DNA from: a virus
Lineage: Duplodnaviria; Caudoviricetes
IMG/VR virus record: IMGVR_UViG_3300042870_001240
Reading direction: 5' to 3' (one strand)
Length of the DNA stretch: 64,000 bases
This document shows, in pieces, positions 1 to 48,694 of this stretch (within the stretch, counting starts at the first letter, position 1; each line of letters begins with the position of its first letter). The translations under genes and the position numbers were made by a program. The notes beneath the pieces are model-generated. The model had not been told where the DNA came from. It ran no database searches and worked only from the letters and a program-made list of their open reading frames with translations.

Positions 1-200
1 CATTAAAAACATCTGACGAATCTGAAAGATTTATCGATATTTTAACAAAAAAATTTAATGATGATGGTAGAAAGGATTGTTTACTAGTAAAGGATTACTC
101 AACCCCTCAAAGAAAATATCTTTATGAACTACTAGTTAAAATGGGGTTTGAGAAATCTTATCTTCAGAGGAGTTCAACAACTTATCCTTCAAAAAAATAA
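1..200 (+). CDS. 3' end of a hypothetical protein, truncated at the window edge and absent from the ORF track; overlaps the convergent 136..402 gene
   Basis: Frame open from nt 3 (LKTSDESERF...KDYSTPQRKYLYELLVKMGFEKSYLQRSSTTYPSKK) to TAA at 198-200. Confidence 0.65.
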   Translation, partial: LKTSDESERFIDILTKKFNDDGRKDCLLVKDYSTPQRKYLYELLVKMGFEKSYLQRSSTTYPSKK

Positions 201-19475: not shown

Positions 19476-19484
19476 TATAAAGAA

Positions 19485-19712: not shown

Positions 19713-19716
19713 CCCT

Positions 19717-19747
19717 AAAAAAAAATATCGTCTAAAAAGACGATATT
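19717..19747 (-). terminator. terminator between the convergent cassette and ruvC
   Basis: 10-bp stem AATATCGTCT/AGACGATATT with a 4-nt loop and a U-tract on the minus strand. Confidence 0.7.
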
Positions 19748-19773
19748 CCAATTTATAATTCACTTAACCGATA

Positions 19774-20376
19774 TTACCTCCAAAGACCTTCTTGATTCAT
19801 AAAACCAAGAACACAACAATAAGCATCTGATTGGTCAAAATTCTCTTTCTTAAGAGTATTGTTTTTTGTATAACTCCAAACAATTTGTGGTTCTCTTTTG
19901 GCAACTAAATCCCAAATGATTTGTTTCTTATCAATGTCTTTTGGTAATCCTCCGAATAACACATGTTTACCTTTGTCATTCTCTCTAACTAATTCAGGGA
20001 AAGCAAATTTTCTTGAGTTGTATGTTGAGATATAGTCGGGCACAATACCTAATACATCATAGATTTGTTTGGTAACTAATGTATTGAATCTTAACAACGT
20101 TTGTATGGTGTACACATTATTACTATTCATTAAAGGTTCCTCAATGATAACCTTTGTAATACCCAATCCTTTATAATCTAAAAGTTTGGTTTTAAAGATT
20201 TCACTCTTAAGAAGTAATTCTTTTATTTTATTATCTTCCTTTGGCTTTGGTATAGGTGATATGTGTGTAAGCTCAAGTAACTCTTGGTTCCCAATGTCAA
20301 ATAACGCCCATCCAATCGTTCGGGTCGATACATCAAGTCCAAGAACCTTAGGACTTTCTTTAATAGATTTTTTCAT
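19774..20376 (-). CDS. ruvC: RuvC-like Holliday junction resolvase
   Basis: VLGLDVSTRTIGWA, VIIEEP and DQSDAY acidic catalytic set. Confidence 0.75.
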   Translation of the reverse strand: MKKSIKESPKVLGLDVSTRTIGWALFDIGNQELLELTHISPIPKPKEDNKIKELLLKSEIFKTKLLDYKGLGITKVIIEEPLMNSNNVYTIQTLLRFNTLVTKQIYDVLGIVPDYISTYNSRKFAFPELVRENDKGKHVLFGGLPKDIDKKQIIWDLVAKREPQIVWSYTKNNTLKKENFDQSDAYCCVLGFMNQEGLWR

Positions 20377-20379
20377 ATG

Positions 20380-22914: not shown

Positions 22915-22940
22915 TGACTATAAATATGTATATTTCTTTT

Positions 22941-24356
22941 TTATGTAGTAATTACGGTACAACAATTACAACCTGATAATTTTAAATTCGTTATTGAATA
23001 TTTTTCATCGCTCGTCCCAATATAACAATTAATTGATTCATTTTTTGTTACAGAAGTTATTGTAGTTAAACTTAAAATATCCGCGTTAGTGATAATGACT
23101 TGAGTCCATTGTTCTGAATTTGAATAAACATAAACATCATTTGATTGACACCCAGGTATTATACTTTTTGTTTCTGACTCATCAAACCCCACAATTGGTT
23201 CAAGAGAATCTCCGTTTATAACTAAATCACTATCACTTTGAAATGTTGCCGATTCTGAATTTGGTGATGATTTTGAAACATTTAAATGAGTAATATTAAA
23301 CGTTAAAGACACTCCGTCAGGTAGTGGTGGGGTTATTTTAATAGTCGTCTCATATTGTTTTGTAACACTATTATTTGATATTTCAACTGTTTTTGATGTT
23401 GTATTTAAACTAACATTATATGTTGTAGGTTTTGATGGTGAGTTAAGAATAATACTTGAACTAGTAATAATTCCACTATCATCAACAACAAGAACATTAT
23501 ACGTCCCAGAACATAAATTATTAAAAATTGGCATATTTTTATATGTCAATCCTGCATCTATAGAATACGTATACGGTGGTGTACCCCCATTTGCAGTTAT
23601 TGTAATCCCTCCATCACATCCACAAATAGTTTGATTTTTGGTCACATTCATAGTTAACGGAGTAATTCCTTCTCCAAGTTTAAGTTTACCTTCAACAGGT
23701 AATGATTGACAAAGACCTTCATAAACAATAACGCTACCCGTATTACCAATTAGGAACCAACTACCGTAAATCGGTGGATATGTCGGATTTAAATTCGATA
23801 TCACATATAGAGTTGGTGTTGCAGCGGACACTAACCATTGTGATTGAGATGTATCCCAAATTATTGCTTGTTGACTGTCGTCAGAAATCCATGCCGGTTT
23901 TCCATCATAAATTCCATTTGGGTTAAAATGTGTTTGTGTTTCCACATAAACCCCTTGTACTAACATGTTTGTAACCATACATAATTCGTATTCATTAGGA
24001 TATGGTGAAGTTGTACTAGTACTTGTTGTAGTTGTAGTTGGGGTTACTCCTGTCAAAATACATGTCGTATTTGCCGTAAAATCTCCGTAATAATCTACAA
24101 CCGTTGCTCCGTATGACCCCGCACTTAAATTATAAATAATCGGACCAATTCCCCCATTCAACCAAATAATAGTATATGGAGGAGTCCCACCTGTTATTGT
24201 TAACGAAGCTATTCCGTCAGTCGATTCGGGTAATGTTGGGTGTGATACGTTACATTCAACACCCATTTGAAATAATGTGATAACATTACAATCGTTAACA
24301 CCTGTTGTTAGACAAGATGTTTCACCAGTCATTTTATATGGGGACTTATTACTCAT
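22941..24356 (-). CDS. SprB-repeat virion protein (fibre/adhesin-like)
   Basis: Two DGx(A/I)xxTxxGGTPPYT...NLx(A/S)G(S/T)Y...VVD repeats and a T-rich linker. Confidence 0.7.
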   Translation of the reverse strand: MSNKSPYKMTGETSCLTTGVNDCNVITLFQMGVECNVSHPTLPESTDGIASLTITGGTPPYTIIWLNGGIGPIIYNLSAGSYGATVVDYYGDFTANTTCILTGVTPTTTTTSTSTTSPYPNEYELCMVTNMLVQGVYVETQTHFNPNGIYDGKPAWISDDSQQAIIWDTSQSQWLVSAATPTLYVISNLNPTYPPIYGSWFLIGNTGSVIVYEGLCQSLPVEGKLKLGEGITPLTMNVTKNQTICGCDGGITITANGGTPPYTYSIDAGLTYKNMPIFNNLCSGTYNVLVVDDSGIITSSSIILNSPSKPTTYNVSLNTTSKTVEISNNSVTKQYETTIKITPPLPDGVSLTFNITHLNVSKSSPNSESATFQSDSDLVINGDSLEPIVGFDESETKSIIPGCQSNDVYVYSNSEQWTQVIITNADILSLTTITSVTKNESINCYIGTSDEKYSITNLKLSGCNCCTVITT

Positions 24357-24371
24357 TTACGATAAATACAT

Positions 24372-25352
24372 TTACAATTGATTTTTTACAATCCTTTTCA
24401 TTATCTCAACGTATTTTATTGTTGAACTATTAGTATCAACAAAATCAAAATAATTCATATCTTCTTTTAATTTATTTAAAGGATTGACGTTGATGAACTC
24501 TCCCTTATAGAACTTGGAGCCCTTTAAATCGTGAGTTACTCCCGCCATATGTAATATGGGTTGTTTCTCATAAATATTAACATTATCAGTTGCCCAAGAA
24601 AACCCCAATTCATTTGTTATTTTTGTTTCAATCCCAAAGTACCAAAGATTCCACAATAAAGACCACATCTCAGCAGTCCAAAACTGTATCTCTCCCGGAC
24701 TTATTGGGAATCTTTTTTGGTAACTCATCATTTGGTCATATAATGGAGTGCAATCTTCATAAATTTTATTCCATATAAACGAATCAGTGTTTTTTATAAT
24801 ATATTGACCTCCACCTGAGTTTTCTTGATTACATTTAACACAATCAACCGATACTCCAACAACATCCACCATCTCTTGAATCAATTGTCCCTTATCAGAG
24901 GTCGGGTGATGTTTCTCGTATCGAATACAACAGTCATTAATGTAGTTGTAACCAATGTATCCGACAGTGTCGGATAAATAGGTTATATCGTCAGATAACA
25001 AACTTTCGAAGTCAGGTAGTTCCCTAAAAATAATGTCCGCATCATGTAAGAAAAAACATTTTCCAAATTCAGGAAATTGTTCTAACCATTTATAAATTAA
25101 AAATGGTTTAATGTTCGGGATGTAATGTTTTTGATGTCGAGCATCTAAATAATGGTGAACATTAATTCCCATAGATTTAAGTTCTAAAGATTCTTTTGTT
25201 GGTTCTGTATTACCATTAACCATTGCAAAAATTACATGGATTTGACTAGGGTCGATACCCATTTCTATAAAATTGTATGAATATACTTTGACTTGCCAAT
25301 GAAAATATGGGACATCAGGTTGTGCGGTTACAAATACTAAATCTTGAGTCAT
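24372..25352 (-). CDS. GT-A fold glycosyltransferase resembling GT96/GT95 peptidyl-Ser/Hyp O-glycosyltransferases
   Basis: YFHWQ, YIPNIKP..IYKWL, HDADIIF (DxD), SGGG, WTAEMW and ILHMAG motifs; likely start MTQDL at 25352. Confidence 0.65.
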   Translation of the reverse strand: MTQDLVFVTAQPDVPYFHWQVKVYSYNFIEMGIDPSQIHVIFAMVNGNTEPTKESLELKSMGINVHHYLDARHQKHYIPNIKPFLIYKWLEQFPEFGKCFFLHDADIIFRELPDFESLLSDDITYLSDTVGYIGYNYINDCCIRYEKHHPTSDKGQLIQEMVDVVGVSVDCVKCNQENSGGGQYIIKNTDSFIWNKIYEDCTPLYDQMMSYQKRFPISPGEIQFWTAEMWSLLWNLWYFGIETKITNELGFSWATDNVNIYEKQPILHMAGVTHDLKGSKFYKGEFINVNPLNKLKEDMNYFDFVDTNSSTIKYVEIMKRIVKNQL

Positions 25353-25423
25353 AATAGAGTTTGTTTTAAATATATTAAACATTAAATTTTAATAAATGGT
25401 GTGTTGGTATATATTTATTAGAT

Positions 25424-25597
25424 ATGAAACTACTTAAAACAATTTCTAAATTAGTTGTTGAATCTCAAAGAGCTTTTGATGAAGCAGCTGAAAAAGGGGT
25501 TAGCGAAAAAGAATTAGATAGATTAGAAAAAAACTATAAAGAGTCCCTTAAACTAATGAGACTTTATGGTAATTTAAGTAAAAAACAAATCAAATAA
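25424..25597 (+). CDS. 57-aa helical protein not in the ORF track
   Basis: MKLLKTISKLVVESQ...; TATTTAT 5 nt upstream; hairpin after the stop. Confidence 0.65.
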   Translation: MKLLKTISKLVVESQRAFDEAAEKGVSEKELDRLEKNYKESLKLMRLYGNLSKKQIK

Positions 25598-25612
25598 CCC
25601 TTTGGGGGTTAT
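25594..25612. terminator. short hairpin between convergent genes
   Basis: ATAACCC-tttgg-GGGTTAT. Confidence 0.4.
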
Positions 25613-25636
25613 ATCACTCACCTTTCATCCCAACCA

Positions 25637-26119
25637 CTAAAGATGTCCGGGGGTTTCGGTGAATTTATATAAATAATCTATTATCCTTTTCTTTATTCCT
25701 TCCTCCTTTATACCCTTTTTTGAATCCTCAATCCAAACAAAGTTTGATAGATGTTTTCCCATATCAAGGTCGTCTATTGCAACCCAAGATGTAATATTCC
25801 CTGTAGAATCTAACCACTTTTTTATCTCCTTAGCTCTTAAATAAGCAATATCGTCTAAATACTTAATATTAGTTATTGGCGTATATCCGATTGGAGATTT
25901 TATTATTCCCTGTTTAATATAAAAGGATTTCATTTTAGGTAAATCTGCCCACGTTTTCCAATCAGAAGAGATAACTATTTCACAATCCACCTCTCTTATT
26001 ATTTCATTAAGAATACTAACCGCCCCTTGGTCAAAATCTAAGAGTATTGGTTTACCATCTGGCCAAATCGCTTTCCCTAAGTATATTACTCCTTGATGGT
26101 CAAGAAAGAGAATTTTCAT
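25637..26119 (-). CDS. HAD-superfamily protein (HAD_SAK_2-like)
   Basis: ILFLDHQGV (motif I, DxQ), IVISSDWK, RAKEIKKWL and WVAIDDLD. Confidence 0.75.
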   Translation of the reverse strand: MKILFLDHQGVIYLGKAIWPDGKPILLDFDQGAVSILNEIIREVDCEIVISSDWKTWADLPKMKSFYIKQGIIKSPIGYTPITNIKYLDDIAYLRAKEIKKWLDSTGNITSWVAIDDLDMGKHLSNFVWIEDSKKGIKEEGIKKRIIDYLYKFTETPGHL

Positions 26120-26126
26120 GAGTAAG

Positions 26127-29100
26127 TTACAACTTTTTCTTTATAAATTCCACAGTCCATTGTGTTAACTCACCGACAGTAGGAAGAGTATAGGCCAATT
26201 CTTTTGGTGTTTTTACTAAGAATCCTTCTGAGTTAGTTGCTAGTGGTTGTTCACCTAATCTTAAACCTTCATAGTATTCAACAGGAACACCTTTAAATTC
26301 TTCTATTGAAGTAATAGACCTTTCGTCTTTAATAAACTTCATATCCGCGATAGGGTAAAGATTATTTAATCTTCGTGAAGTAAGAATACCTTCTGCAAAT
26401 ATATTAAGATGACGGTTTGTTACTACGTTATAAATTTCTTCAACCTCGGTAGATTCTTCTTTACCTACTATTGTTACTATGTTTCCTTTATCATTAAATG
26501 TACGAGTTCCTATAGGGCTATGTTCGTTAGGTATGGCGTAAGTAAATTCTCCCTTATCTAAGTTAAAGATACGGTGACCTCCGTCATGATTTAAATGTCC
26601 GGATATTCCAAGTTTTGAACCATCACTAAAGAGAATATTTACGTATTGAGTAAGTACTGGAGTCATTATCCAAAGAGGGGTCGCAGAATCAAATCTTCCT
26701 TCATCAAAGTTCCACACTAAAAGAGAATCTTCATAAGATATATCTTCTATGTTCTTTTTAAGTCCGCTTGCTAGAGTTATTTTGGTTCCTTTAATAAAAC
26801 AAGGCATAGTAAAACTAACTTGAGCACCATACGATGTACCAACCGCATTAGTAGCATATATTCTTACATATACGGGAATATGTGGGTTCGGTATGATATA
26901 GGTGTGTATGAATTGTCCTAATGCGTCAGGATTACCTGAACCATCAGATACTATATTATTAGCAATAGTAGGATTTGGAGAAGTGCCCCAAACAATACCT
27001 CTTTGGGTTATTGTTGACCCTCCATTACTCACTATCGTTCCTGTTATTTGAGCACTACCATTACCTAAATTTGCATATCCATCAGTAGTAACTGTTGGTA
27101 ATGTTGCTAGAGTTGGTGTTGGTGTTGGTGTTGGAGTTAGAGTTGGAGTTGGAGTTGGAGTTGGAGTTGGTAACCCACAACTTTGACAATCAATATCGTA
27201 AGATATTTTTAAGTCAATTTTAACATCCACATCAATTAACGATACATTTGAATTACAGTTAGTGTCGATAGTTATTATGTTGTTTAAATAATCTAAAAGA
27301 ACTTCTCCAACACCTTCATAAGATAATAAAATTTCTTTAACCACATCGTAAAACAAACTATCTAAAGGATAGTCATTTAATGTTGTTCCCGTATAAAAAG
27401 GTTGAGTCTGAGTATTACCACTAACCGTCACTTCGGCATAAAATATTGTTTGTTGTAATAAACAATTAGTATCACCGCTAGTTAAATCGTAAAATCCTTC
27501 AGTTAACATTTGTTGAGGACCTTTTCTAACGGTTTGTCCCGTATTCATAAAATCTTCATCACAAATATTGAATGTTTGGTAAGTAGATATCACGTTGAAT
27601 CCATTAATTATAATGTCTCTTGTTTGAACACACCCATTATCATCAATAACGGTTAGAGTATATGTTCCTGCGGATAAAGAATTAATTGTTAATCCTGTTT
27701 GTCCATTAACATTTGAACTCCAATTTAAAATAAATGGAGGTTCTCCACTTGTAATAAAAGTATCGATAGTTCCATTAGTCCCATCCGTAGAGTCTCCTCC
27801 AACTAACACAAAATCAACTGTACTTGAGTTGTTTATCGTGAATGGTAGTATTTGCGCACAACCATTATTATCGGTAACTGTCGCAGTATAATTACCTGAA
27901 GGTAAATCAGTAAATGTGTAAGATAAATCACTTATAATTGTAAATTGTCCATCAATTTCATAATTATAAGGTCCCGTTCCTCCTGAAGTAATATTCAAAG
28001 TAACCGCACCATCACTTAAATTACAAGTTGTACCAGTGGTCTCAACCGATAACGTAAATAACTCAACATTATTAATGGTATAGGCATGTGTAAAAACGCA
28101 TGGCCCCATATCAGATATTGTTAGAGTATAATTACCCGAAGACAAACCATTAAATGTCCATGAAGTAAAACTACCTGTTATTACTGTTGAATTACCTAAC
28201 GAATCTGTTAAAGTATATGTATATGGTGCAGAACCTCCAAAAATGGTTACTTGTATTTTACCTGAAGTATTGTTACACGCCGAATTAGTTATATTGACCG
28301 AGGTCACCGAAAGTCCTCCTGGAGTTAATAATGATGTGGATGATGTAAAATTACATAACCCCGCATCAGTTACTTGTACACTAAACACACCTGAAGATAA
28401 TCCCGTAAAAGTATATGTTGTTGCAAAACTAACCGCAACTGTCCCATTAGAACCTGAATAATAATATGGAGCAGTTCCACCTGTTATTGTTATTGTCACT
28501 TCTCCATCGGCAGAAAAACAAGATGGACTTTCAACCGTGAAAGCACCCAATCCGACATTAGGAACTGTTGTTACAGTTACTCCACTACTTTGCACACATC
28601 CCGAACCATCGGTTACTGTGACAATATATGGTCCCGCGGTTAATCCTGTTATTGATTGAGTTGTTTGGCCACCTGGTGACCATAGATAAGTATAAGGTGG
28701 CGTTCCTGTTAATCCTGTTATATGTATAGAACCTGAATTAACCGCACAACCCGCATCATTTACGGTGTATAAACCAATTTCAAGTGGTAATGAATCTTTA
28801 ATAATACATGTCTCAGATTTACCTGTGCATCCACCACCGTCATTTGCCACCACATAATAAGTTCCTGCCGATAAACTTCCAAAACCATATGAAGAACTTA
28901 AAGTAATACCTGAAGTAATATACCCATCAGACATTTCATATAAATAAAAACTACCTGTTCCATATAAGTTAGATGTTGTTGCGGTAACAGAACCATTGTT
29001 TAATCCACATAAAGTATTTTGTTGACTCACAATACTAACACACGTTCCTGTTGAAATATAAACATTGACGGGTAAGACAGTATTTGCCGGTGAACAACTA

Positions 29101-29312
29101 TCAATAATCTTAAACGTATATGTTCCTCCTGATAACCCTGTTTCAGAGTAATTAACTATTCCAACCCCTAATGATGTAGTCCCCGTATAAGGGCTAATCC
29201 ACTGTATTGTATAGTCAGGAGCACTTCCCAAGATATCAAGACTAAACGCTCCTGATAAATCATTTAAACAGTCACCTGTTATGCTTATAGTATATGATAA
29301 AAGACACGACAT
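26127..29312 (-). CDS. SprB-repeat fibre-like virion protein with PT linker, FN3-like domain and C-terminal Hint domain
   Basis: Seven SprB-like repeats; (PT)n; GGSTITQRGIVWGTSPNPT...YVRIYATNAVGTSYG; P/CFIKGTKITLASG...IYNVVT..HLNIFAEGILTS. Confidence 0.8.
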   Translation of the reverse strand: MSCLLSYTISITGDCLNDLSGAFSLDILGSAPDYTIQWISPYTGTTSLGVGIVNYSETGLSGGTYTFKIIDSCSPANTVLPVNVYISTGTCVSIVSQQNTLCGLNNGSVTATTSNLYGTGSFYLYEMSDGYITSGITLSSSYGFGSLSAGTYYVVANDGGGCTGKSETCIIKDSLPLEIGLYTVNDAGCAVNSGSIHITGLTGTPPYTYLWSPGGQTTQSITGLTAGPYIVTVTDGSGCVQSSGVTVTTVPNVGLGAFTVESPSCFSADGEVTITITGGTAPYYYSGSNGTVAVSFATTYTFTGLSSGVFSVQVTDAGLCNFTSSTSLLTPGGLSVTSVNITNSACNNTSGKIQVTIFGGSAPYTYTLTDSLGNSTVITGSFTSWTFNGLSSGNYTLTISDMGPCVFTHAYTINNVELFTLSVETTGTTCNLSDGAVTLNITSGGTGPYNYEIDGQFTIISDLSYTFTDLPSGNYTATVTDNNGCAQILPFTINNSSTVDFVLVGGDSTDGTNGTIDTFITSGEPPFILNWSSNVNGQTGLTINSLSAGTYTLTVIDDNGCVQTRDIIINGFNVISTYQTFNICDEDFMNTGQTVRKGPQQMLTEGFYDLTSGDTNCLLQQTIFYAEVTVSGNTQTQPFYTGTTLNDYPLDSLFYDVVKEILLSYEGVGEVLLDYLNNIITIDTNCNSNVSLIDVDVKIDLKISYDIDCQSCGLPTPTPTPTPTLTPTPTPTPTLATLPTVTTDGYANLGNGSAQITGTIVSNGGSTITQRGIVWGTSPNPTIANNIVSDGSGNPDALGQFIHTYIIPNPHIPVYVRIYATNAVGTSYGAQVSFTMPCFIKGTKITLASGLKKNIEDISYEDSLLVWNFDEGRFDSATPLWIMTPVLTQYVNILFSDGSKLGISGHLNHDGGHRIFNLDKGEFTYAIPNEHSPIGTRTFNDKGNIVTIVGKEESTEVEEIYNVVTNRHLNIFAEGILTSRRLNNLYPIADMKFIKDERSITSIEEFKGVPVEYYEGLRLGEQPLATNSEGFLVKTPKELAYTLPTVGELTQWTVEFIKKKL
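27109..27170. repeat. hexamer microsatellite x10 encoding (PT)n
   Basis: agagtt (ggtgtt)3 ggagtt agagtt (ggagtt)4. Confidence 0.85.
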
Positions 29313-32300
29313 TAATTACATAAAATATTAAAGTTTATTCCGATATTCAATTTAAAATTGATACCTTGTTCTGACACCGTACACACTTGATTAGATAACA
29401 CTACGGTATCAGTAGTTGTTAAATAATAATCATAACCGTAATCTTTTAAACTCTCTAAAGCAATTAAAAGACCATCATTATACGTTGTTCCTGTTGGCAC
29501 ACTATAAATTGGGCTACTATATCCAATACCATTAAAGAATGGATATTTTACAACCGTTACATTATCAATTTGTAAATCAACAAACCATTCACTAGTCATT
29601 CCGTTAAAATCACAATCATTTAAATTATAACCATTTGCTGTTAAATAATTTGTCATTAATTGTCCTAAAACTCCGTTAAAAGTCGTTATAGTTGGATGAT
29701 TAGTCCATGGATAAATAGGACACTCAACAGTTTCTAATGGACAATCATGCGAGAATAAACCTGAAGTGATTGAGCATGGTTTACAAGGTATTTTTATTAA
29801 TTGGCACCCCTCTTGTCTTCTCCAAACAAATTTTTGTCTATGAAAGATTGAGTTTTCAAGTCTAACTCCGGTATTCCAAATTGTTGTTGCTGGAACCATT
29901 TGTTCAACTAATCGTATCCAATAATCACCCAAACCATTAACATATTCCATCATAGTTTTATACGTAAAATTATCGTTTGGAATTCCAATGGTCTCATTTG
30001 ATTGTAGGTATCTCCAAAAAATAGATTCTAAAGTAGGGTAACCACCTGTTTTACCATTAGACGAATATTGTCTATTTCTAACATTAATTGTATTTAACCA
30101 AAATGTTTGGGCAAATTCAAAGAAAGTTTTTCTTTTAGGTTGAGGGTTAATTTCGGTCCAATCCACCCCACCTCTACTTGGATAAGGACTATAAGGTTTT
30201 GGGTCACATGGTGTCGGTGGCACATAATTCAACCCTTCATTAGGTATTGGATAGTTATACTGTTGAGACATATACCATATATCGTAAGCAATTCCTTGAG
30301 CAGGATTTAAGAATAAATCCACATTTTTAACGTTTAATACTAATCTTTCATCTGAAACATAATACCTAGCGTTAAAGTTACCATCAAGATTTGTTCTAAT
30401 ACCAATCTCATTATTAACCCAACTTTTATTATTATCAATTGTCTCCCTTAATGTATACCCCAAATCCATAAACGGAAACTTACGATATCTATTCAAATAC
30501 TCTTGACCATACGAATACGGTAACAATACTGTTTGATAATTTGGGTTATTACCAACAAAAACACTATTTGTAAGGTCAATATTTTCAGGTGCCCTATGTT
30601 GAGGTGTTTGCTCAAACCATCCACTACCCATTTGAAAAAAATAACTCTCAGAGTTAATAGGGGTTGTTGGGTAACCATATTCATCCATAGGATATTCATC
30701 AAGGGTAATATTAACGTCTTGAATATCTCCAGTTGTTGTAAACCCTGTATAGGTTTGTCCAAAAATTGAGAATATGTTCCCCGCTTCTAAAATTGGGATT
30801 TGTTGCACATATGTTCCTCCTGATATTTGGGCAAATTGGGTATCAAATTGTGATAAATTAATTTTTTGGTCGGCAAGGTAAACATACTCATTAAATTCAA
30901 CTAATGCCTCAGGAGCACCAATTAATCTCATTAAAATTTCAATTGATTTTCTTGTTCCTTTTGATTTAAATAAAAACGCGGAATTTAAAATCAAGTTCCT
31001 ATAGTATTGGTAATTTAATTCATCAGGAGTCTGTTGTTGTGAAATACCTGGATAAACCGAAGCGTTATTATTTGTTGTTCCAAATACTGAGGTTAATAAT
31101 TCTGTTTCGGATATTGGTGAAATATTTATATTCCACCCAAGAGTTTGTGCAAGATTCTTAAGTAATTGTGATGGAATATCATTACCAACATTATAATTAA
31201 CCGAAGTCATATAAGATAATGCGGTGATGTATTTCTTAACATCGTCAAAACTTTTACCGTAAATTTGTAACACTTTTTCAACCTTTTGGTCAGGAGTATC
31301 AAATTCTTTAAACGCACCCGTAGTTAAAAATCTTGATACTAAATTTGTTCTATATAAATCAAAAGATTCACTAATATTATTTATCGTTGTGATATATGTT
31401 TCAAAAGATTTTGTTATAATATCAATATTCCATTCTCCATATAAAGGCCAAGAAATGTTTGTGTTTTGAATATAATAACTCCCGTCCTCAGCTTCTTTTG
31501 GCACTTTAAATGTTGCAGTATATTTTGGCGACACATTCCTATTTAATAAGAAATTTTCAACCTCATCTAAATTCTCATTGAATACTTTATTAACCTCCAA
31601 ATCGTTTGGTCGTATTACTAAATCATCATTGGTAAATGTCTTACCTGAAAATGGATTACCATAAACATATAACTTTAGTGTTCCACTTGTCAAACTTGTT
31701 GTCGGCACAATACCGACCACATTATAACCAACACCTTTATAGTAAAGTGAATATTTTAAATATTCTACTCTCATATCTCGTAAAGAAGATACTTGAATTT
31801 CTTTTAATTGTAAGTTTCTTGTCGAATTAACGGTAAAATCAATATCAAAAGGATTTCGTAATCTTGATAAGTCTAAATCAAAACTTGTCTCGTTGTTTGT
31901 TTTACTATATAAAATATTATTGGCCGTAGGTCCTGTAATATAATTTGTTCCCATAAAAGTCGATTCTAACGCTCCCGGGAAATAACTAATTATTGTGGTT
32001 ATAGATGCCGACATTCTTTTAACCATAGAACCATACATTGTAAAGTTCGTAACCTGTGTTAAATCAAAATTAGGATAAACCTTAAAATTATTTTCAACAA
32101 TAGTTTTTGATTGATTAATAGATTCAATTCCTAACGAATTTAAATTAATCGGTTCAGAAAAAGTCCCCGTATTAAAAGTTCTATTTGTTTTTTCATTTGT
32201 AGATGTAGTAAACTCAAAATTACCTTGTGTAAGACCTCCTCCCGCAACAAGTTGTAAACCAACTAAATTGTCAGAAAAAGTACCAGCTCCTGTTGCAGAC

Positions 32301-32332
32301 TGTGGTGGACAAGTATATTTTTTAATTGCCAT
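29312..32332 (-). CDS. baseplate wedge protein (T4 gp7 / P2 gpI-like motif)
   Basis: LLKNLAQTLGW...YYRNLILNSAFLFKSKGTRKSIEILMRLIG. Confidence 0.6.
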   Translation of the reverse strand: MAIKKYTCPPQSATGAGTFSDNLVGLQLVAGGGLTQGNFEFTTSTNEKTNRTFNTGTFSEPINLNSLGIESINQSKTIVENNFKVYPNFDLTQVTNFTMYGSMVKRMSASITTIISYFPGALESTFMGTNYITGPTANNILYSKTNNETSFDLDLSRLRNPFDIDFTVNSTRNLQLKEIQVSSLRDMRVEYLKYSLYYKGVGYNVVGIVPTTSLTSGTLKLYVYGNPFSGKTFTNDDLVIRPNDLEVNKVFNENLDEVENFLLNRNVSPKYTATFKVPKEAEDGSYYIQNTNISWPLYGEWNIDIITKSFETYITTINNISESFDLYRTNLVSRFLTTGAFKEFDTPDQKVEKVLQIYGKSFDDVKKYITALSYMTSVNYNVGNDIPSQLLKNLAQTLGWNINISPISETELLTSVFGTTNNNASVYPGISQQQTPDELNYQYYRNLILNSAFLFKSKGTRKSIEILMRLIGAPEALVEFNEYVYLADQKINLSQFDTQFAQISGGTYVQQIPILEAGNIFSIFGQTYTGFTTTGDIQDVNITLDEYPMDEYGYPTTPINSESYFFQMGSGWFEQTPQHRAPENIDLTNSVFVGNNPNYQTVLLPYSYGQEYLNRYRKFPFMDLGYTLRETIDNNKSWVNNEIGIRTNLDGNFNARYYVSDERLVLNVKNVDLFLNPAQGIAYDIWYMSQQYNYPIPNEGLNYVPPTPCDPKPYSPYPSRGGVDWTEINPQPKRKTFFEFAQTFWLNTINVRNRQYSSNGKTGGYPTLESIFWRYLQSNETIGIPNDNFTYKTMMEYVNGLGDYWIRLVEQMVPATTIWNTGVRLENSIFHRQKFVWRRQEGCQLIKIPCKPCSITSGLFSHDCPLETVECPIYPWTNHPTITTFNGVLGQLMTNYLTANGYNLNDCDFNGMTSEWFVDLQIDNVTVVKYPFFNGIGYSSPIYSVPTGTTYNDGLLIALESLKDYGYDYYLTTTDTVVLSNQVCTVSEQGINFKLNIGINFNILCN

Positions 32333-33240
32333 TACTGAGTTATGTTTGTAAAGTTTTTACTAAAATCAATATTATCATTCCTATCTTGTCTAACCTCATA
32401 TAACAACTCATTAAATTGATTTCTAATTTCATATAAATTGTATTGTTTGTAAATATTATTTTGACTGTCGTATAATGTGTAAATACCATCATCAATTGAC
32501 TTGGTCTGATTACCAAATAAAGCAATTGCCAATGTTGAGAAGTCATGTTCAGCAATTTCTATATCCAAAGTAATCGGATTAAAGAACGTATTTGTTATTG
32601 TTATCTCTTGGTCAGGTTGTCCTATATAAGGTATTGCGTTTGGCTTATTTGTTGGTGCCGATGATGGTGATAAAGTACAAAAAATTAAATTAGTATTATT
32701 ATCGGTATATCGGTATCTAATCGCCTTCTGTGAAGTATTTGTTAAATTTTGTACGATAGGTTCACAGAAAAAAGAAGACGTTATCAATCTAAAGAAATTA
32801 GGGATTTTTGTTCCATCTGAGTTTAAATACTCAATTCTAAAACCAATTAATCCTTGATTAATAAATTTATTTCTAAATTCAGTTGGTACTGAATTTAAAT
32901 CAATAACAATTCCTCTGACATTAGGTAATGCCGATAAAACACCGCAATCTAATATTGTAGTTCTAATTTGAGCGGGTCTAATTAATAAAGTGTAGATACC
33001 AATCTTATTAAATTGGTCAGCTGGTAATTTTAAATTATATAAACCCCCTAAAATCTCAACACCAGCGTTTCCTCCCGTACTCGCATTATTAAAGTAAGGT
33101 CTTAGGATAGACGGTGCGTCTAATTTAGTTAAAACAAAATTATCTGTATCATCCCTCGATGGGGTATAATTTAAGATTATCTCTACATCTTCTGGAGAGA
33201 CATCAGCTGGTCTTATTGTTCCGTAGGTTCCTGTTGCCAT
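32332..33240 (-). CDS. conserved-looking virion structural protein, 302 aa
   Basis: Coupled gene in the structural operon; beta-rich. Confidence 0.6.
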   Translation of the reverse strand: MATGTYGTIRPADVSPEDVEIILNYTPSRDDTDNFVLTKLDAPSILRPYFNNASTGGNAGVEILGGLYNLKLPADQFNKIGIYTLLIRPAQIRTTILDCGVLSALPNVRGIVIDLNSVPTEFRNKFINQGLIGFRIEYLNSDGTKIPNFFRLITSSFFCEPIVQNLTNTSQKAIRYRYTDNNTNLIFCTLSPSSAPTNKPNAIPYIGQPDQEITITNTFFNPITLDIEIAEHDFSTLAIALFGNQTKSIDDGIYTLYDSQNNIYKQYNLYEIRNQFNELLYEVRQDRNDNIDFSKNFTNITQ

Positions 33241-33762
33241 TTATATAATTATTTTATTTGACTTCTTTAAATTTTCTTCCGCCCATAATGGTCTTAAGTT
33301 TAAATAGTGGTTTAGTCCTTCAATTTCTTCTTTATTTTTACCAACACTAATTGGTATTATATGGTCAATATGCCATTCACCGTAATTATCCCAAGACATA
33401 TCATCAACAAACTGATTTTCAAGATGTTTCTTTAAATCAGTTATGGGTAAGCCAATACATTCTAATGTATTTTTTGTTTTACCCTTAATAATATTACATA
33501 TTCTTGCTCTTAAATTTCCAATTAATCTATAATTTATATCGTTAAACCGTCTTTCCTTCTGATAATCAGTATTATATGTCGGATTTTTTTTGCGATAATC
33601 TACTTGGTATTTATAAATCTTTTCTTTATTTTTTAAATCATATTCCTTTTTTAATATCGATTGGCATACTTTACAATACGAACGTTTACCCTGTTTACCT
33701 AATTTTTGATTATTAAACTCGGGTAAAGATTTTTCAATATTACATTTAGTACAAACTTTCAT
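33241..33762 (-). mobile_element. free-standing HNH (homing) endonuclease gene
   Basis: N-terminal CTKC...CKVC Zn finger; MSWDNYGEWHIDHIIP...LNHYLNLRPLWAEENLKKSN HNH motif. Confidence 0.8.
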
Positions 33763-33779
33763 AACAATAAATATCCTTT

Positions 33780-42715: not shown

Positions 42716-44554
42716 TCAGGAGAAATTAACTGTTTTTAAATTCTTAACCCTTACATTGATGTCTTTACCCGGAAATCTGACTTGGTATGTCTGACTTGGT
42801 TCGGCAAAAATTGTTTCATCAATCAAATCAATTTCTCGTGTTTCAGAGTCTAAATATTTTTGGGATGTTTGAGATGATGAGTATTGTCCTCCGACTTTAT
42901 TGAATACTTGTATACTTGAAACCGAGATTACCCCATTCTCACTTTGTATTTGTCTTCTAATTTCTGAAATATAAACATTTTGACCCATCTGTCTATGTGA
43001 AGGGTCAAAATAAGTTGACACTATATTAACAATCTGTGAAATTACCGCCCCTTGATTTTGACTATTATCTAAAACAACGTCAAGGTTCATAGATAAATCA
43101 ATAACACTCGCAGTCTCAACTGAGATATAATCATTAATCATTCTATAGTTAGATAAGTAATTCGCAACATTATTTTTTAAAGTATTCGACACGATTTCAG
43201 TTAATTTACCCGAATCATCGTAAGATAACATTTTAATTTTAATCTTATTATTTTCCTCAGTAATTGCCGCTTTAGCAGGTGCTCCGAATTGTGATGGCAT
43301 TGTTCGAATTAAAGAATCGTAATCGTTTACAGTAACCGCTCTATTTTGTGCTGAAAAATTAAAACTAACTAAATTTCTAACTTCTTCCGTTGTTGGAGAC
43401 GCAGCCCCACCAATTGCCGCAGTAACATTAATACAACTTAATGAGTTAACAACACTTGTATTTACAGAATCTGATGGACCATTAACAAAGAAAGAAACCG
43501 TACCAATTTGTGTGATAACATTAACACCTAAATTACTTCCTGTACCACCACCAATTCTATATTGTATAAACATAGTTGTATTAGCTTTAACCGTACTACC
43601 TAACGCTAAGTTATTAGAGTACTTGTAAAGATTTAAATTATATCCGTTTCTTGCGAATTCTCGTAATTGTTCATCAGCCGATTGTGTACCACCACCGAAA
43701 GTCATTTTCATAAATCCTTCAGGAGTATATTCAGTTATAAACTTATCACTTGTTGTAATATACCTACCAACTTTAATTCCAGGTTGGTCAGAAACTTTAG
43801 TGGGGTCCTCAATGAAAACTCTATCCTCAATTAATGCTTTAACCTCATACCATCTATTATCTAAACCTAAAAATTCTTGTGATGAAGGCATGTTAGCATA
43901 TTGTGTGCCGTCTTTTAATAAAACACTTGTTACCCCTAAAACATTTTTTTCAGGTAGGAACATTTCAAAGAATGGTTTAACATCGTTAGGTGTCATCACT
44001 CTTTTATAAACTTTAGTAATACCATTAACAATCGTCTCTCGTTTTACAATGGTATAATTAAGTAATTTATTATTTGAATCGAAATTAGGTATTTTTAATC
44101 TATTTGGGAATCCATCTGCATTAATTGCCGACGCAAAATCAATATCGTAAACCGTTTCAAATACTTGACCCGCACCACTAACTTGTGAACCTCTTCTTAA
44201 AATACCACAATATCTTAAATCTTCTTTATCCCCAAAAGCAGGTACTGTAATCGAAAAATCGACTAAAGCAACTGAAGGTCTTTGACCCGGCACTTTTAAT
44301 CCATATGTTCTTGCAATATTAAAGATTGATGACCTTTGTTGGGCGTATTGTAAAACAGTTTCCTGAATACTTCGGTCAATATTGAATTGTAAGTTATCAC
44401 TAACTGCGGCGTTTAAGTCCAATAACGCTGAGAACACTGACGCATCATTAAAATTGTCAATTAACTCGGGATAGTATGTTCGGGTAAAATTAATTAACTC
44501 AGTTCTTATTGACTGAAAATCCCTTGTCGTATACGATATTTTTTTATTAGCCAT
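42716..44554 (-). CDS. baseplate wedge protein, gp6 / baseplate J-like
   Basis: YTTRDFQSIRTELINF N-terminus; FSAQNRAVTVNDY motif; follows the gp25-like gene. Confidence 0.85.
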   Translation of the reverse strand: MANKKISYTTRDFQSIRTELINFTRTYYPELIDNFNDASVFSALLDLNAAVSDNLQFNIDRSIQETVLQYAQQRSSIFNIARTYGLKVPGQRPSVALVDFSITVPAFGDKEDLRYCGILRRGSQVSGAGQVFETVYDIDFASAINADGFPNRLKIPNFDSNNKLLNYTIVKRETIVNGITKVYKRVMTPNDVKPFFEMFLPEKNVLGVTSVLLKDGTQYANMPSSQEFLGLDNRWYEVKALIEDRVFIEDPTKVSDQPGIKVGRYITTSDKFITEYTPEGFMKMTFGGGTQSADEQLREFARNGYNLNLYKYSNNLALGSTVKANTTMFIQYRIGGGTGSNLGVNVITQIGTVSFFVNGPSDSVNTSVVNSLSCINVTAAIGGAASPTTEEVRNLVSFNFSAQNRAVTVNDYDSLIRTMPSQFGAPAKAAITEENNKIKIKMLSYDDSGKLTEIVSNTLKNNVANYLSNYRMINDYISVETASVIDLSMNLDVVLDNSQNQGAVISQIVNIVSTYFDPSHRQMGQNVYISEIRRQIQSENGVISVSSIQVFNKVGGQYSSSQTSQKYLDSETREIDLIDETIFAEPSQTYQVRFPGKDINVRVKNLKTVNFS

Positions 44555-45423: not shown

Positions 45424-47283
45424 TTATTTTATCTCACATCCATCAGCCCCACAAGCGATTTCACCACTTAGGTTTGTTTCATCAGAATGTTCAACAACTT
45501 TAGTTAAATCAATCGAATGTAATTTTGAATAAAGTAATTCAAACTCTTCTTTTGTACAATCAGTGAATGGTGCTTGGATGTAAGAACCATTATCGTAAGG
45601 TAATACTGATAATCCATTATAGAAATCACGATTATTCCAAAACCATTCTCCCACTAACCCCCAATCTTCCGCCTTCAAACTAATTGTTGCCGATACGTTG
45701 TGCATATTTGAACCTCCTCTATGTCCTGGTCTAACCCACTCTTGAGTTACTTTTTTAACTCTTTCCAATAATTGGAATGGACTTTCCGTTCTTAATATCG
45801 CTCCTTCAGGTGCCTTTTGCGGTACCGAAATTACTGCAGTATCGTGAGGTCTAAAGAATTCGTCTTCAACTAATTCAGGGTGAAACTTACTCAAATATTG
45901 GTAAATAGACTCATTTTTTCCAACACGAATTCTTCTGATATAATAATCGTTATGCCAAGCATGAATTCCTGAAGATGTACCTAAAGTTAATGATGTTGTT
46001 CCCGCAGGTTTTACTGTCGTAGTTCTTGCAGATTTATTAATACCAATTAATTTAGCCACTCTTTCGTTTTCTTCTTTAACAATTTTTGCCGACTCTTTCA
46101 TGTTATAACCTAAAACTACTCCAGAACCGATTCCCGTCATAGAAACACCGATTAATGCGTCTTTCTCAGTTGTTCTTTTCCAAATATCTCTTAAATAATG
46201 GAAGTTAGTGTAACCCGCTTGTAATGTCCCAATAAAAGCCGCCGCTCTAACACGGTTATTTAAATCTTCTTGTGATTCAATGTCAGAAACATTTACTTCA
46301 CATAAATTACAAAACTGATTAGGTCTTAGTGCGATTTCACAACAAGGGTTTGTTCCCCAATCTTTATCATTTGTAAAATAAATTCCTGGTTCACCTGCTC
46401 CTGACGCCTCAATACGTTTCCATAAATCCATGAAAAATTCTTGGGTAATTTTATGTCTTAATAACGCCGCTGAGTTATTTGCTCTACCTCTTTGTGGATT
46501 TGTTTCCCACCAATTACCTGACTTACAAGAAATCATTTCTTGGTCATCAGCACTAAACAATGAAATTAATGCCGCTCGTCTAATACCTCCTGCAAGAACT
46601 GCGTCAGCAATATGACAAACCATATCATGAACTTCAATAGGTGTTAATCTGTCTCCATCTTGTTTTGATTCTAAAATTCCTTTTAATTTATGTAAACAAT
46701 CTTTAAGTGGTTGAGGTCCTGGTGCTTTTCCTCCTGATGTTACAAGTTGAGCTCCTTTCTGTCTGATATCTGAGAAATCAAAATCAGGTGTTGATACTTG
46801 TTCTCCAAAATAGGATTTGAATAATACTTTAATTGCGTCCGCCCATCCTTCGATTGAGTCCCCAATTAAGTATCGTCTTTTTCTGTTCTCACTTGGTTTT
46901 CTAACTTCAGGTAATTTTTCTACGTGGTGTTTTTGTACTGAGTAACCAACACCTGTTCCACCTAATAATAGGAACATCGATTCAGAAAATGCGTCCAAGT
47001 GGTCGATTGGTAAATAAGCACAGTTATAAATTCTGTTTGGTGATATTTCAATTGGTTTTCCACCAAATTGCATTGACCTCATTGAGGGTAATACTTTCTT
47101 ATCATACACCAACTTATACACCTCTTTAATCTCACTTTCAAGTGATGGGTATTTTTTAATGTGCATGTTTATGTTTCGGGTTACTAATTCTTCCCAAGTT
47201 TCACGTCTGTTTAATTCAGGTACAAATTTTGCGTACTTCATATAGACTGTTAAGTCCGATAAAATCTTTTGTGATGCGTCCAT
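45424..47283 (-). CDS. nrdJ: class II (adenosylcobalamin-dependent) ribonucleotide reductase
   Basis: YNCAY, NPCCEI, FCNLCE, TTVKPAGTTS and C-terminal CGADGC; likely start MDASQ at 47283 (track gives 47349). Confidence 0.88.
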   Translation of the reverse strand: MDASQKILSDLTVYMKYAKFVPELNRRETWEELVTRNINMHIKKYPSLESEIKEVYKLVYDKKVLPSMRSMQFGGKPIEISPNRIYNCAYLPIDHLDAFSESMFLLLGGTGVGYSVQKHHVEKLPEVRKPSENRKRRYLIGDSIEGWADAIKVLFKSYFGEQVSTPDFDFSDIRQKGAQLVTSGGKAPGPQPLKDCLHKLKGILESKQDGDRLTPIEVHDMVCHIADAVLAGGIRRAALISLFSADDQEMISCKSGNWWETNPQRGRANNSAALLRHKITQEFFMDLWKRIEASGAGEPGIYFTNDKDWGTNPCCEIALRPNQFCNLCEVNVSDIESQEDLNNRVRAAAFIGTLQAGYTNFHYLRDIWKRTTEKDALIGVSMTGIGSGVVLGYNMKESAKIVKEENERVAKLIGINKSARTTTVKPAGTTSLTLGTSSGIHAWHNDYYIRRIRVGKNESIYQYLSKFHPELVEDEFFRPHDTAVISVPQKAPEGAILRTESPFQLLERVKKVTQEWVRPGHRGGSNMHNVSATISLKAEDWGLVGEWFWNNRDFYNGLSVLPYDNGSYIQAPFTDCTKEEFELLYSKLHSIDLTKVVEHSDETNLSGEIACGADGCEIK

Positions 47284-47317
47284 AGTTCTACTAATTCTTA
47301 TTTTTTTATTTTTTTGG

Positions 47318-48694
47318 TTATTGTTTTTCTCTTTCTTTTCTTTTATCAATCAAATCCTTAATTCGTTGTCTATTTCTTTCTTCTGTCTGTTCTTCAAGAC
47401 CTAAGAATGTCACTGATGATTCTGTATCGATATCTAACATACCGTTATCAAATTTACAGTTTTCAAATACAACACCGTCATCACCAATTCTTGATTTAGT
47501 AATAGCAATTGTCGCCAATTTCATTTCTTTTTGTTGTAGTGATTTTGCCACGGAAATGATTACGTGTCCAACCTGAGCTTTCTTGATTGACCCACCCATT
47601 TGGTCTGTGGTAACTACCTCTGAAGATATTGAACTTCTGTTACCTTGAGTCGCAGTCCAACCAACTAAATCTAACTCATGACACATAGATTCAAAACCTC
47701 TCATAACCGAACCTTCTGACTTCCATTCGTCACCTAAATTTTTATCAGGCACCACACAATCAATATAATCAAGTAATACCATGTCAATCTTAATACCGTC
47801 AGCAATCATTTTTCTAATTTGTCCTTTGATTTGTAACATAGTTACGGTATCAGATGGTAATTTTTTAAGTATTAACTTATTCTCCATAGAATCTTTAATC
47901 TCTTTGACTTTAGCCATTACTTCTTCTTTCTTCGTAGTTAACTCATCAGGATGCACTTTCGTCCATAATGTGATATGTTTTCTTTGAATAATTTTAGGGT
48001 TGTCCTCAAAAAATATTTGTAGAACATTATAACCTAAATTAAATGCGTGATTTGAGATTTTAGTTAACAATGTTGACTTACCAACACCTGTTGGTGCTAA
48101 TATTACACCGATTTCACCTCGTGCTAAACCACCTTTTAAGAGTCTATCAATACCTGGGATACCCATTGGTATTGGATGTCTATAATCTTCGTTTAAAACC
48201 TCATCTAAGTTGTTAAAAACGTCTTCCATACCATCTTGTCTCTCACCAACTTGTAACGCCTCTCTAACGAGTGTTTCCAAAGTATCGTAATTCTCAAACT
48301 CACCACCGTCAATTACTTTTTGAGCCTTTGTAATCGCCTTCTGCAATTCTTGTTGTTTACAGAATTTCAACGCTTTCTCTTGAACAAATTCTTGTCCATC
48401 AGTCGGAGCATCTTTAATTTTTGTTAAAGTATCTAAGACAATTTTAGACGCTAATTCTTGTTGTAGTTCTGATTTTGTAATTTGTTCTAAAGTATCAAAC
48501 GTTGGTGTGTGTTCGTATTTAGAGTAATACTCCTTAACCATTTGAATAATTATCTTAAAATATTTATTTTCAAAATAATTATTCTCAATTACATCAATAA
48601 TTGACCTTGAAAAGTCTTTATCAACGATGATTTGGTTTAATAATTGTATCTGAAAAGTGCTTCCTAGATAATCAAAATTTTTGTTTGACGCCAT
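47318..48694 (-). CDS. dnaB: replicative DNA helicase, DnaB/gp41-like
   Basis: Walker A APTGVGKS, LLDYID and WTATQGNR. Confidence 0.9.
   Translation of the reverse strand: MASNKNFDYLGSTFQIQLLNQIIVDKDFSRSIIDVIENNYFENKYFKIIIQMVKEYYSKYEHTPTFDTLEQITKSELQQELASKIVLDTLTKIKDAPTDGQEFVQEKALKFCKQQELQKAITKAQKVIDGGEFENYDTLETLVREALQVGERQDGMEDVFNNLDEVLNEDYRHPIPMGIPGIDRLLKGGLARGEIGVILAPTGVGKSTLLTKISNHAFNLGYNVLQIFFEDNPKIIQRKHITLWTKVHPDELTTKKEEVMAKVKEIKDSMENKLILKKLPSDTVTMLQIKGQIRKMIADGIKIDMVLLDYIDCVVPDKNLGDEWKSEGSVMRGFESMCHELDLVGWTATQGNRSSISSEVVTTDQMGGSIKKAQVGHVIISVAKSLQQKEMKLATIAITKSRIGDDGVVFENCKFDNGMLDIDTESSVTFLGLEEQTEERNRQRIKDLIDKRKEREKQ

Follow-up and report, generated by a model that had tools for sequence, protein, structure and literature searches.

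Hint domains are known as inteins, as BIL domains, as the peptidases of pretoxins and as the autoprocessing domain of Hedgehog proteins. To our knowledge, a terminal Hint domain with a Ser-Cys ending and a conserved region behind it has so far been a hallmark of eukaryotes. Here we describe a C-terminal Hint module from a virus, found in a window of 64,000 nucleotides (IMG/VR record IMGVR_UViG_3300042870_001240), where it makes up the last 224 residues (838–1061) of a 1061-residue protein.

In the Hedgehog autoprocessing domain, the conserved Cys143 forms a branched thioester, as the +1 Cys of an intein does, before cholesterol attacks (PMC12054796, 2025). The Drosophila HhC construct reads Asn137-Ser-Val-Ala-Ala-Ser142-Cys143-Tyr at this point (PMC12054796). 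The A-type BILs go back to Amitai 2003 and Dassa 2004, as cited in PMC7765530. Divergent C-terminal Hint-like domains were reported from Stigmatella, Myxococcus, Photorhabdus, Serratia and Yersinia by Buerglin in 2008 (PMC2362128, Additional files 16-17). No paper describing the family studied here was found in the literature, the nearest being the accounts of BIL types (PMC7765530) and the remark on Hint-like domains (PMC2362128).

The Hint domain and its C-terminal extension

An initial annotation, made from the sequence alone, had recognized a Hint domain by a small set of motifs. All of them are present: CFIKGTKITLASG at position 26801, a His in DGGHRIF, the stretch IYNVVT, and a GILTS ending without HN, with 79 residues after it. 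The last Hint strand is GILTS, and it is followed by Arg980-Arg981 and not by His-Asn.

26127..29312, minus strand: whole carrier gene, 1061 residues, an intact open reading frame with an SprB-repeat N-terminal part, a Pro/Thr linker, an FN3-like domain and the Hint module
26367..26801, minus strand: Hint domain, residues 838–982 (module residues 1–145), from fold matches, a profile match and conservation
26799..26801, minus strand: Cys838 (module Cys1), which opens CFIKGTKITLASG, with Pro837 just before it
26574..26576, minus strand: His913, the block-B His in DGGHRIF, from sequence
26427..26429, minus strand: Asn962, block F, in IYNVVT, from sequence
26373..26378, minus strand: Ser979-Arg980, at the place where inteins have His-Asn, from sequence
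26130..26366, minus strand: extension, residues 983–1061 (module residues 146–224), 79 residues to the stop codon, ending with an amphipathic helix, from alignments and the AlphaFold2 model

The AlphaFold2 model of the module, built with a 65-sequence alignment, has a mean pLDDT of 94.8 and a pTM of 0.91. A Foldseek search with this model retrieves Tetrahymena BIL2 (E = 1e-9), the BIL domain of C. thermocellum, many inteins and the 17-kDa fragment of Hedgehog (Protein Data Bank (PDB) code 1at0, E = 6e-7), and the E values of the BIL, intein and Hedgehog matches range from 1e-9 to 1e-6. The matches in VIA-align span model residues 1–143/145 with Z scores of 12–16.5: 16.5 for BIL2, 15.7 for the Ssp DnaB mini-intein, 15.0 for the Cth BIL and 14.3 for Hedgehog. 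The family profile also finds BIL2 from sequence (E = 1.3e-7), in an alignment that matches blocks A, B, F and G. Because a confident model and the Foldseek, VIA-align and profile matches agree, the motifs are not a chance occurrence, and the modelled fold confirms residues 838–982 as a genuine Hint domain of the Hint superfamily. When the 1061-residue protein was compared with Pfam, the module gave only a sub-threshold match to Hom_end_hint over module residues 1–28. Searches of the module against NCBIfam, PHROGs and PADLOC returned nothing, and there was no Pfam match in the window protein to Hint_2 (PF13403), to PF01079 or to Peptidase S74, the fold being that of a Hint domain.

Conservation was counted in module numbering over 222 representatives of the family, and the residue before Cys1 was scored in 221 of them. 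The residues for an N-to-S acyl shift are kept, as had been proposed: Cys1 and the block-B His (His76) are both invariant (222/222), and the latter aligns with the block-B His of BIL2 in the profile alignment. Trp30, Phe32 and Asn133 are likewise present in all 222, Asp33 in 221, Asn125 in 218 and His131 in 215. At the end of the domain, Ser142 is found in 221/222 and Arg144 in 199/222. Position 143 between them is a Cys in 103 representatives (46%) and otherwise Arg (42), Leu (21), Ser (12), Asn (12), Thr (10) or Val (8); the window protein has Arg (Arg980). The residue before Cys1 is most often Pro (81/221, 37%), as it is here (Pro837), with mostly hydrophobic residues in the remainder and Gly in 6/221. 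Positions 46/47 are variable, so that, judged by linear position and not by superposition, there is no conserved counterpart of Hedgehog Asp46.

The domain had also been called non-splicing, and the family bears this out, with neither the terminal Asn nor a conserved +1 nucleophile here and in 95% of the 222 relatives. Because His-Asn is replaced (by Ser979-Arg980 in the window protein) and no +1 nucleophile (Cys, Ser or Thr) is conserved, splicing and Asn-driven C-terminal cleavage are excluded, as judged from the residues present, for the window protein and about 95% of the family. A sub-clade of Bacillota members (L097-L119 and L131, from metagenome-assembled genomes (MAGs)) carries a Lys-rich loop, with runs of 4-10 Lys/Arg, inserted in the first Hint hairpin; Cys1 is kept in these proteins.

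The tail behind the Hint domain is conserved to the same degree as the catalytic core, which gives the protein an architecture like that of Hedgehog, a Hint domain followed by a sterol-recognition region. The length of this extension is about 65-80 residues across the family. Over the same representatives Tyr149 (Tyr986 of the window protein) and Glu184 (Glu1021) are invariant, and Asn147 (217), Lys158 (218), Arg161 (206), Arg181 (220) and Gln185 (219) nearly so. The pLDDT of the model is 95-98 at module residues 140-190, lower at about 190-210 and 95-96 in the last helix; the modelled helices of the extension cover module residues 174-179, 199-202 and 209-221. No family or fold match to the extension was found in Pfam, NCBIfam or the atlas, where the extension alone (module residues 143-224) scores at most 0.79.

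The closest architectural parallel is Hedgehog. The Hint folds superimpose with a Z score of 14.3 and a root-mean-square deviation of 2.0 over 133 residues, model residues 1..145 corresponding to residues 258..402 of the 1at0 chain (HhC 1..145). Both domains stand C-terminal to a secreted or surface cargo, both have Cys1 and a block-B His, both lack the terminal Asn, and the Hog domain too consists of a Hint domain and then a conserved extension, about 65-80 residues long in the family (PDB 1at0, 6tyy; PMC2362128). The family consensus Asn/Glu137-Gly-Ile-Leu-Thr-Ser142-Cys143-Arg has the Ser-Cys pair at the same spacing as Drosophila HhC, and by these consensus residues the end of the family's Hint domain resembles the Hedgehog type ("motif J" of PMC2362128) and not the intein type. 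The differences are also substantial. The extension has no sequence similarity to that of Hedgehog, the Gly at position -1 is replaced by Pro or a hydrophobic residue, a counterpart of Asp46 is missing by linear position, Cys143 is limited to 46% of the family, the window protein having Arg, and scores against PF01079 stay below the cut-off. The family occurs in phages, giant-virus bins and bacteria and not, as far as searched, in eukaryotic genomes. We therefore describe the module as Hog-like in architecture but leave it outside the Hog family, given the dissimilar extension, the missing Gly and Asp46, a shifted block-B Thr and the incomplete occurrence of Cys143. A phmmer search of the PDB with the family member from locus L116 did not reach Hedgehog, and so the comparison rests on the VIA-align ranges and on residue counts in the construct of PMC12054796.

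Among solved structures, BIL2 (from BUBL1; PDB 6tmm, 6y75) is the best structural match and the only significant sequence match (Z 16.5, 20% identity). Blocks A, B and F align, including the H-R after block B and the N-x-F-A-N-G motif. Unlike the module, which is terminal, ends in Ser-x and carries an extension, BIL2 is internal between ubiquitin-like domains and ends in His-Asn. The A-type BIL domains (Cth BIL, PDB 2lwy; Z 15.0) have the Hint fold and occur in variable secreted or surface proteins of bacteria, where they serve autocleavage and not homing, but they keep the C-terminal His-Asn that our family lacks (PMC7765530) and have no conserved extension. Pretoxin HINT domains (PF07591; PMC3482391) resemble the module in that a Hint peptidase follows a filament or fibre carrier and precedes a C-terminal part; they differ in that the module is followed by a short conserved extension (with a HAD domain in viruses) and not by a polymorphic toxin with an immunity gene. 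Peptidase S74 (PMC7824862), a C-terminal domain of fibres and tailspikes that cuts itself off after assembly, is a functional analogue of the reading we prefer, although its fold and chemistry are different, with a Ser-Lys dyad in place of a Cys-His Hint thioester. The proteins in the supplement of PMC2362128 are, like ours, secreted bacterial proteins with a divergent C-terminal Hint-like domain distinct from inteins and from the Hog and BIL types. They are probably a different subgroup, since none of their genera is among the 62 genome loci of our family (all MAGs); this distinction is drawn by genera and not by sequence comparison.

Carriers, cassette and phosphatase neighbours

The cap seen on this fibre is present, as the initial annotation had it, but it is not a feature of a single fibre, since it belongs to a very large family that also caps pilin-like proteins of bacteria. 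When 1.84 billion cluster representatives were searched exhaustively with HMMER, 2033 proteins matched at E <1e-3, 577 of them at E <1e-30, so that the family comprises at least 2033 clusters at 50% identity, a lower bound. The module is always C-terminal and is never inserted within a conserved host protein; the median length of the stretch that starts at Cys1 is 208 residues. Members from phages, giant-virus bins and four bacterial phyla share about 50% identity in the module, and the parts upstream of it vary. The carriers are unrelated, range from 10 to 2241 residues and bear domains of adhesin and fibre type, namely Laminin_G_3, LRR_5, Flg_new, YadA head, collagen, phage-tail repeats, DUF285, SPRY and EGF-teneurin domains. 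One member (P0127, 758 residues) has a Glyco_transf_25 domain by precomputed Pfam assignment, placed upstream of the Hint module by elimination, and the cargo can thus be something other than a fibre or adhesin.

Neither the window protein nor any relative reaches a Pfam cut-off; members show scattered sub-threshold matches to Hom_end_hint, Hint_2, Intein_splicing, Hint and PT-HINT. The weak matches to Hint_2 (PF13403) concern 14/65 members (best E = 6.3e-4, none at the cut-off), those to PF01079 concern 10/65 (best 28.1 bits, in the L116 member, against a cut-off of 29.7), and those to PT-HINT (PF07591) concern 6/65, again below the cut-off; neighbours in the atlas bear PT-HINT. The module found no match by tblastn in 50,697 deposited phage genomes, and the whole 1061-residue protein matches such genomes through its SprB and FN3 parts only. 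In UniProt, a protein from a giant-virus bin (Gaeavirus) that is 44% identical is automatically labelled "Hint domain-containing".

At least 69 loci were found in IMG/VR, on contigs of up to 573 kb, two of them binned as giant viruses. A 90-kb contig with a member fused to a HAD domain encodes eukaryote-type kinases, ELO, a fatty-acid hydroxylase and a dual-specificity phosphatase, and we regard it as giant-virus-like because this is the gene content expected of a giant virus. The species-genome collection contributed 62 loci, all from MAGs, mostly of gut Clostridia and Bacilli, Alphaproteobacteria, Gastranaerophilaceae and Atopobiaceae, with a few Betaproteobacteria. These are true cellular contexts, with RNase R, CtpA, SecA, SufB and seryl-tRNA synthetase genes as neighbours. 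A prepilin (class III) signal opens 21/53 complete bacterial proteins, compared with 0/65 viral ones; L095, L092, L101, L072 and L076 are among the members that have it, and Pfam N_methyl is above its cut-off in L113 (5197..6561) and L116 (4570..6570). These signals and N_methyl matches indicate that in bacteria the module caps type IV pilin-like proteins. Two or three bacterial module genes form tandem arrays in L070 and L071.

In the window protein, the residues directly before Cys838 form an FN3-like domain, as the annotation had proposed. AlphaFold2 models residues 740-837 with a pLDDT of 91.8, and Foldseek matches them to FN3 domains (E = 2e-4 to 1e-3, TM about 0.64; the best is an FN3 domain of Ihog, E = 2e-4). 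A homologous domain ends 0-10 residues ahead of Cys1 in 100/221 family representatives. Together with the module and the next gene, this domain is part of a shared segment of DNA.

25667..27155, minus strand: cassette of 1489 bp with the FN3-like domain, the Hint module and the HAD gene, 86.6% identical in DNA to viral contigs L001 and L013
27093..27176, minus strand: Pro/Thr-rich linker, residues 713-740, from sequence; left edge of the shared cassette
26802..27095, minus strand: FN3-like domain, residues 740-837, presumed to be the cargo; its C-terminal residue, Pro837, bears the putative scissile carbonyl
25637..26119, minus strand: gene of a small HAD phosphatase-like protein of the HAD_SAK_2 type, 160 residues (PF18143, E = 4.3e-20; phrog_1818)

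When positions 18000-36000 of the window were compared with L001 and L013 by blastn, 27155..25667 was the sole shared segment. It runs from within the Pro/Thr linker into the next gene. Protein similarity to the closest relatives begins at residues 735-744, and the upstream part is unlike theirs. An FN3-Hint-HAD cassette of about 1.5 kb thus sits on unrelated fibre genes.

The HAD gene begins 7 bases past the stop codon of the 1061-residue gene. A link of the module to a HAD phosphatase had not been noted in the initial annotation. In 22/69 viral loci, the next gene on the same strand encodes a HAD homologue and often overlaps the stop codon of the module gene, and none was found elsewhere in those loci; the loci with this linkage fall among L001-L033, L049 and L068. 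In L049, the module and the HAD domain are one open reading frame. A search for longer HAD homologues yielded 13 fused clusters (P0093, P0127, P0239-P0248 and P0250), 12 of them new, and in all 13 the HAD domain starts 0-8 residues past the last helix of the module. In a quick maximum-likelihood tree of 112 modules, the HAD-linked ones are scattered, with at least 7 label changes, at least 2 of them forced by well-supported branches. The identity between HAD proteins drops to 24-30% while the adjacency persists. The adjacency is partly explained by shared descent as a cassette, but given the scatter in the tree, the low identity and the independent in-frame fusions, it is not simple shared descent alone. 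Motif I of the HAD protein reads FLDHQGV here, and the nucleophile Asp7, SSDW and DD are conserved across homologues. The second Asp of motif I (DxD) is Gln, Tyr or Gly in most copies and Asp only in L005/L006. A complex prediction for the Hint module with the HAD protein scored 0.00 and carries no information either way.

The bacterial loci have no HAD homologue, and in most of them no phosphatase neighbour was seen. A second kind of phosphatase, a histidine phosphatase, is also linked to the module: His_Phos_1 genes lie directly downstream in three alphaproteobacterial MAG loci (L077, 1514..2116; L081, 1290..1871; L091, 6624..7214) and directly after the fused Hint-HAD gene on a giant-virus-like contig (L134, 11905..12480).

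Several further neighbours recur. A SecA gene is directly downstream of Hint-capped, pilin-like genes with Flg_new repeats in gut Clostridia (L070, L071, L074, L079, L080, L082, L088, L089, L090) and further downstream in L091; up to three Hint-capped paralogues stand in tandem near SecA. These SecA-adjoining loci, about ten in Clostridia, recall the accessory-SecA loci beside surface-layer genes. Directly downstream of the module gene, four viral loci have a papain-family (Peptidase_C1) gene (L019, 8654..9448; L024; L058; L065), and two related viral loci have a gene for a small P-loop NTPase or kinase-like protein (L007, 6560..6979; L008, 8627..9007). In two unrelated bacterial MAGs, a PpiC-type peptidyl-prolyl isomerase is encoded 1-2 genes downstream of a pilin-like member (L132, 12171..13118; L133, 11557..11865). 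This proximity is of interest given the frequent Pro at position -1, but may be due to chance.

Proposed self-removal and competing explanations

Our preferred reading, offered tentatively and at somewhat less than an even chance when taken as a whole with hydrolysis, a cap role and a HAD partnership, is that residues 838-1061 are a self-removing module of the Hedgehog type. Cleavage would likely fall between Pro837 and Cys838. Cys838 would attack the carbonyl of Pro837 in an N-to-S acyl shift assisted by His913, so that the last peptide bond of the FN3 tip becomes a thioester; this opening step, common to all Hint chemistry, is the part of the mechanism that the sequence supports. As nothing here could splice, the thioester would have to be resolved from outside, most often by water. 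The 79-residue extension would pack on the Hint domain and aid hydrolysis through Tyr986 and Glu1021. Cleavage would leave a fibre of 837 residues with Pro837 at its C terminus and would release the other 224 residues, a spent cap or folding aid of the fibre tip. The viral modules would act together with the HAD protein, encoded downstream or fused to the C terminus of the module. Hydrolysis is preferred because water is the sole nucleophile common to phage and giant-virus proteins that fold in the cytoplasm of a bacterium or protist and to pilin-like proteins exported by Gram-positive and Gram-negative cells, and because the carriers have in common only that they are surface fibres or adhesins.

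Several points weigh against this reading. Cleavage is a prediction for every member of the family, and so are the two outcomes suggested in the initial annotation, covalent joining of the tip to a small molecule or partner protein and release of the Hint domain with its tail as a folding chaperone. Proline is the commonest residue at position -1, in the window protein as elsewhere, and Pro at this position hampers the N-terminal cleavage of commonly used inteins, a point for which a literature search gave no supporting paper. The block-B Thr is off its canonical -3 position, where the window protein has a 7-residue insertion. Hedgehog needs Cys143 (PMC12054796), and with Arg at position 143 a branched intermediate like that of Hedgehog would be impossible in this member. 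The closeness of Tyr986 and Glu1021 to Cys838 is assumed. A throw-away cap would need neither an invariant, polar-rich extension nor a linked phosphatase, and the presence of both hints at further chemistry or at a function of the released fragment.

Such further chemistry is what the main rival proposes, a possible but rather doubtful Hedgehog-like transfer in which the Pro837 thioester would be resolved by a specific acceptor bound to the extension as an adduct-recognition region. The tip of the fibre or pilin would acquire a covalently attached small molecule, lipid, glycan or second protein, and the phosphatases would make or process a phosphorylated acceptor. The layout, a Hint domain and then a conserved extension of 65-80 residues, equals that of Hog, Ser142-Cys143 has the Hedgehog spacing in 46% of the family, and the polar or basic residues R144, N147, Y149, K158, R161, R181, E184 and Q185 would suit an anionic ligand. 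The HAD gene downstream in 22/69 viral loci, its fusion in 13 clusters and L049, and His_Phos_1 in L077, L081, L091 and L134 fit the supply of such an acceptor. BIL2, the closest solved relative, belongs to the BUBL ubiquitin-like locus of Tetrahymena, and the BIL domains of BUBL have been proposed to mediate conjugation. The acceptor is hypothetical, however, the -1 residue is not Gly, and a conserved counterpart of Asp46 is missing by linear position. Viruses assembled in the cytoplasm and extracytoplasmic pilins of Gram-positive and Gram-negative cells have few possible acceptors in common, Cys143 is missing from the window protein and half of the family, and most bacterial loci are without a phosphatase neighbour. 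The fuller version, a prokaryotic and viral counterpart of Hog that esterifies or amidates the C termini of fibre and pilus tips to a defined acceptor that the basic and polar extension recognizes, with a phosphatase preparing or finishing a phosphorylated acceptor, we consider unlikely.

It is less probable still that the N-terminal part is a mere carrier and that the Hint domain and extension, with or without HAD, are the working product, freed by N-terminal cleavage and possibly triggered by contact with the host surface or a reducing environment. The conserved, horizontally shared unit is indeed the C-terminal one, on unrelated carriers, and in the fused forms cleavage at Cys1 would free a Hint-extension-HAD enzyme, a layout that resembles the polymorphic-toxin logic of carrier, HINT peptidase and C-terminal effector (PMC3482391). 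In most members, though, the Hint domain is followed by no more than about 65-80 residues, and these are conserved instead of polymorphic; most viral loci encode HAD as its own protein, the bacterial ones lack it, and no toxin or defence family was matched in Pfam, NCBIfam or PADLOC. An improbable alternative is that there is no cleavage, so that the Hint-fold module stays as the distal tip, for example in receptor binding or oligomerization, with Cys and His in structural or metal-binding roles. The C-terminal domains of fibres are often their receptor-binding part, and Pro at -1 in 37% of members along with the shifted block-B Thr could mean a poor acyl shift. A receptor-binding tip should vary, whereas this module keeps its roughly 50% identity from phages and giant-virus bins to four bacterial phyla, and Cys1, invariant like the block-B His, is exactly the first residue of the fold. 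A true intein or A-type BIL that splices or cleaves C-terminally has next to no probability. The Hint fold and the intein-like block F would agree with it, but Ser-Arg stands in place of His-Asn, Asn143 occurs in 12/222, Arg144 in 199/222 leaves no +1 Cys, Ser or Thr, and the module is always terminal and interrupts no conserved host protein. The sequence already contradicts an intein identity, as the terminal His-Asn and the +1 nucleophile are both absent.

Setting in the window and implications

The window appears to be a section of the genome of a large tailed phage. Besides the genes above it encodes a ribonucleotide reductase, a DnaB-like helicase, a UvsX-like recombinase and an SSB. The 1061-residue protein has SprB repeats in four stretches or more (Pfam E = 8.5e-27) and matches phrog_26672, a virion structural protein (E = 7.6e-7). 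Its gene at 26127..29312 is included in a minus-strand run of large abutting genes, whose open reading frames overlap by 1 base, and this run is downstream of a baseplate wedge gene (42716..44554). From the SprB repeats, the virion-structural match and this position, the label of a fibre protein is a reasonable one, drawn from context.

Three other genes of the window are worth recording. Amid the large structural genes, 33241..33762 (minus strand) encodes an endonuclease VII or HNH-like protein (phrog_1035, E = 8e-26), possibly a free-standing homing-type nuclease. Between two SprB-repeat genes and outside the shared cassette lies 24372..25382 (minus strand), a conserved phage protein whose function is unassigned (phrog_4417, E = 3e-69). 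The ribonucleotide reductase is class II-like (45424..47349, minus strand) and 67.5% identical to that of Microcystis phage Mel-JY01; for no gene of the window was a closer cultured relative seen.

The module family occurs at the business end of phage fibres, and also on proteins from giant-virus bins and on bacterial type IV pilin-like proteins. New here are the phage setting, the FN3-Hint-HAD cassette, the repeated HAD fusions, the other phosphatase neighbours, the Hedgehog-type Ser-Cys ending and the recognition of the bacterial carriers as pilin-like. A concrete handle for experiments is offered by the small HAD phosphatase, which is tightly linked to the module and repeatedly fused with it. 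If the module merely cuts itself off, it would be a second self-removing fibre chaperone after S74, chemically different from it, and a ready-made self-cleaving tag. If transfer were true, this would be the first Hedgehog-style ligation of a protein to an adduct outside eukaryotes. If the module were a counterpart of Hog, its presence in giant-virus bins could make it a candidate source of the eukaryotic Hog domain.

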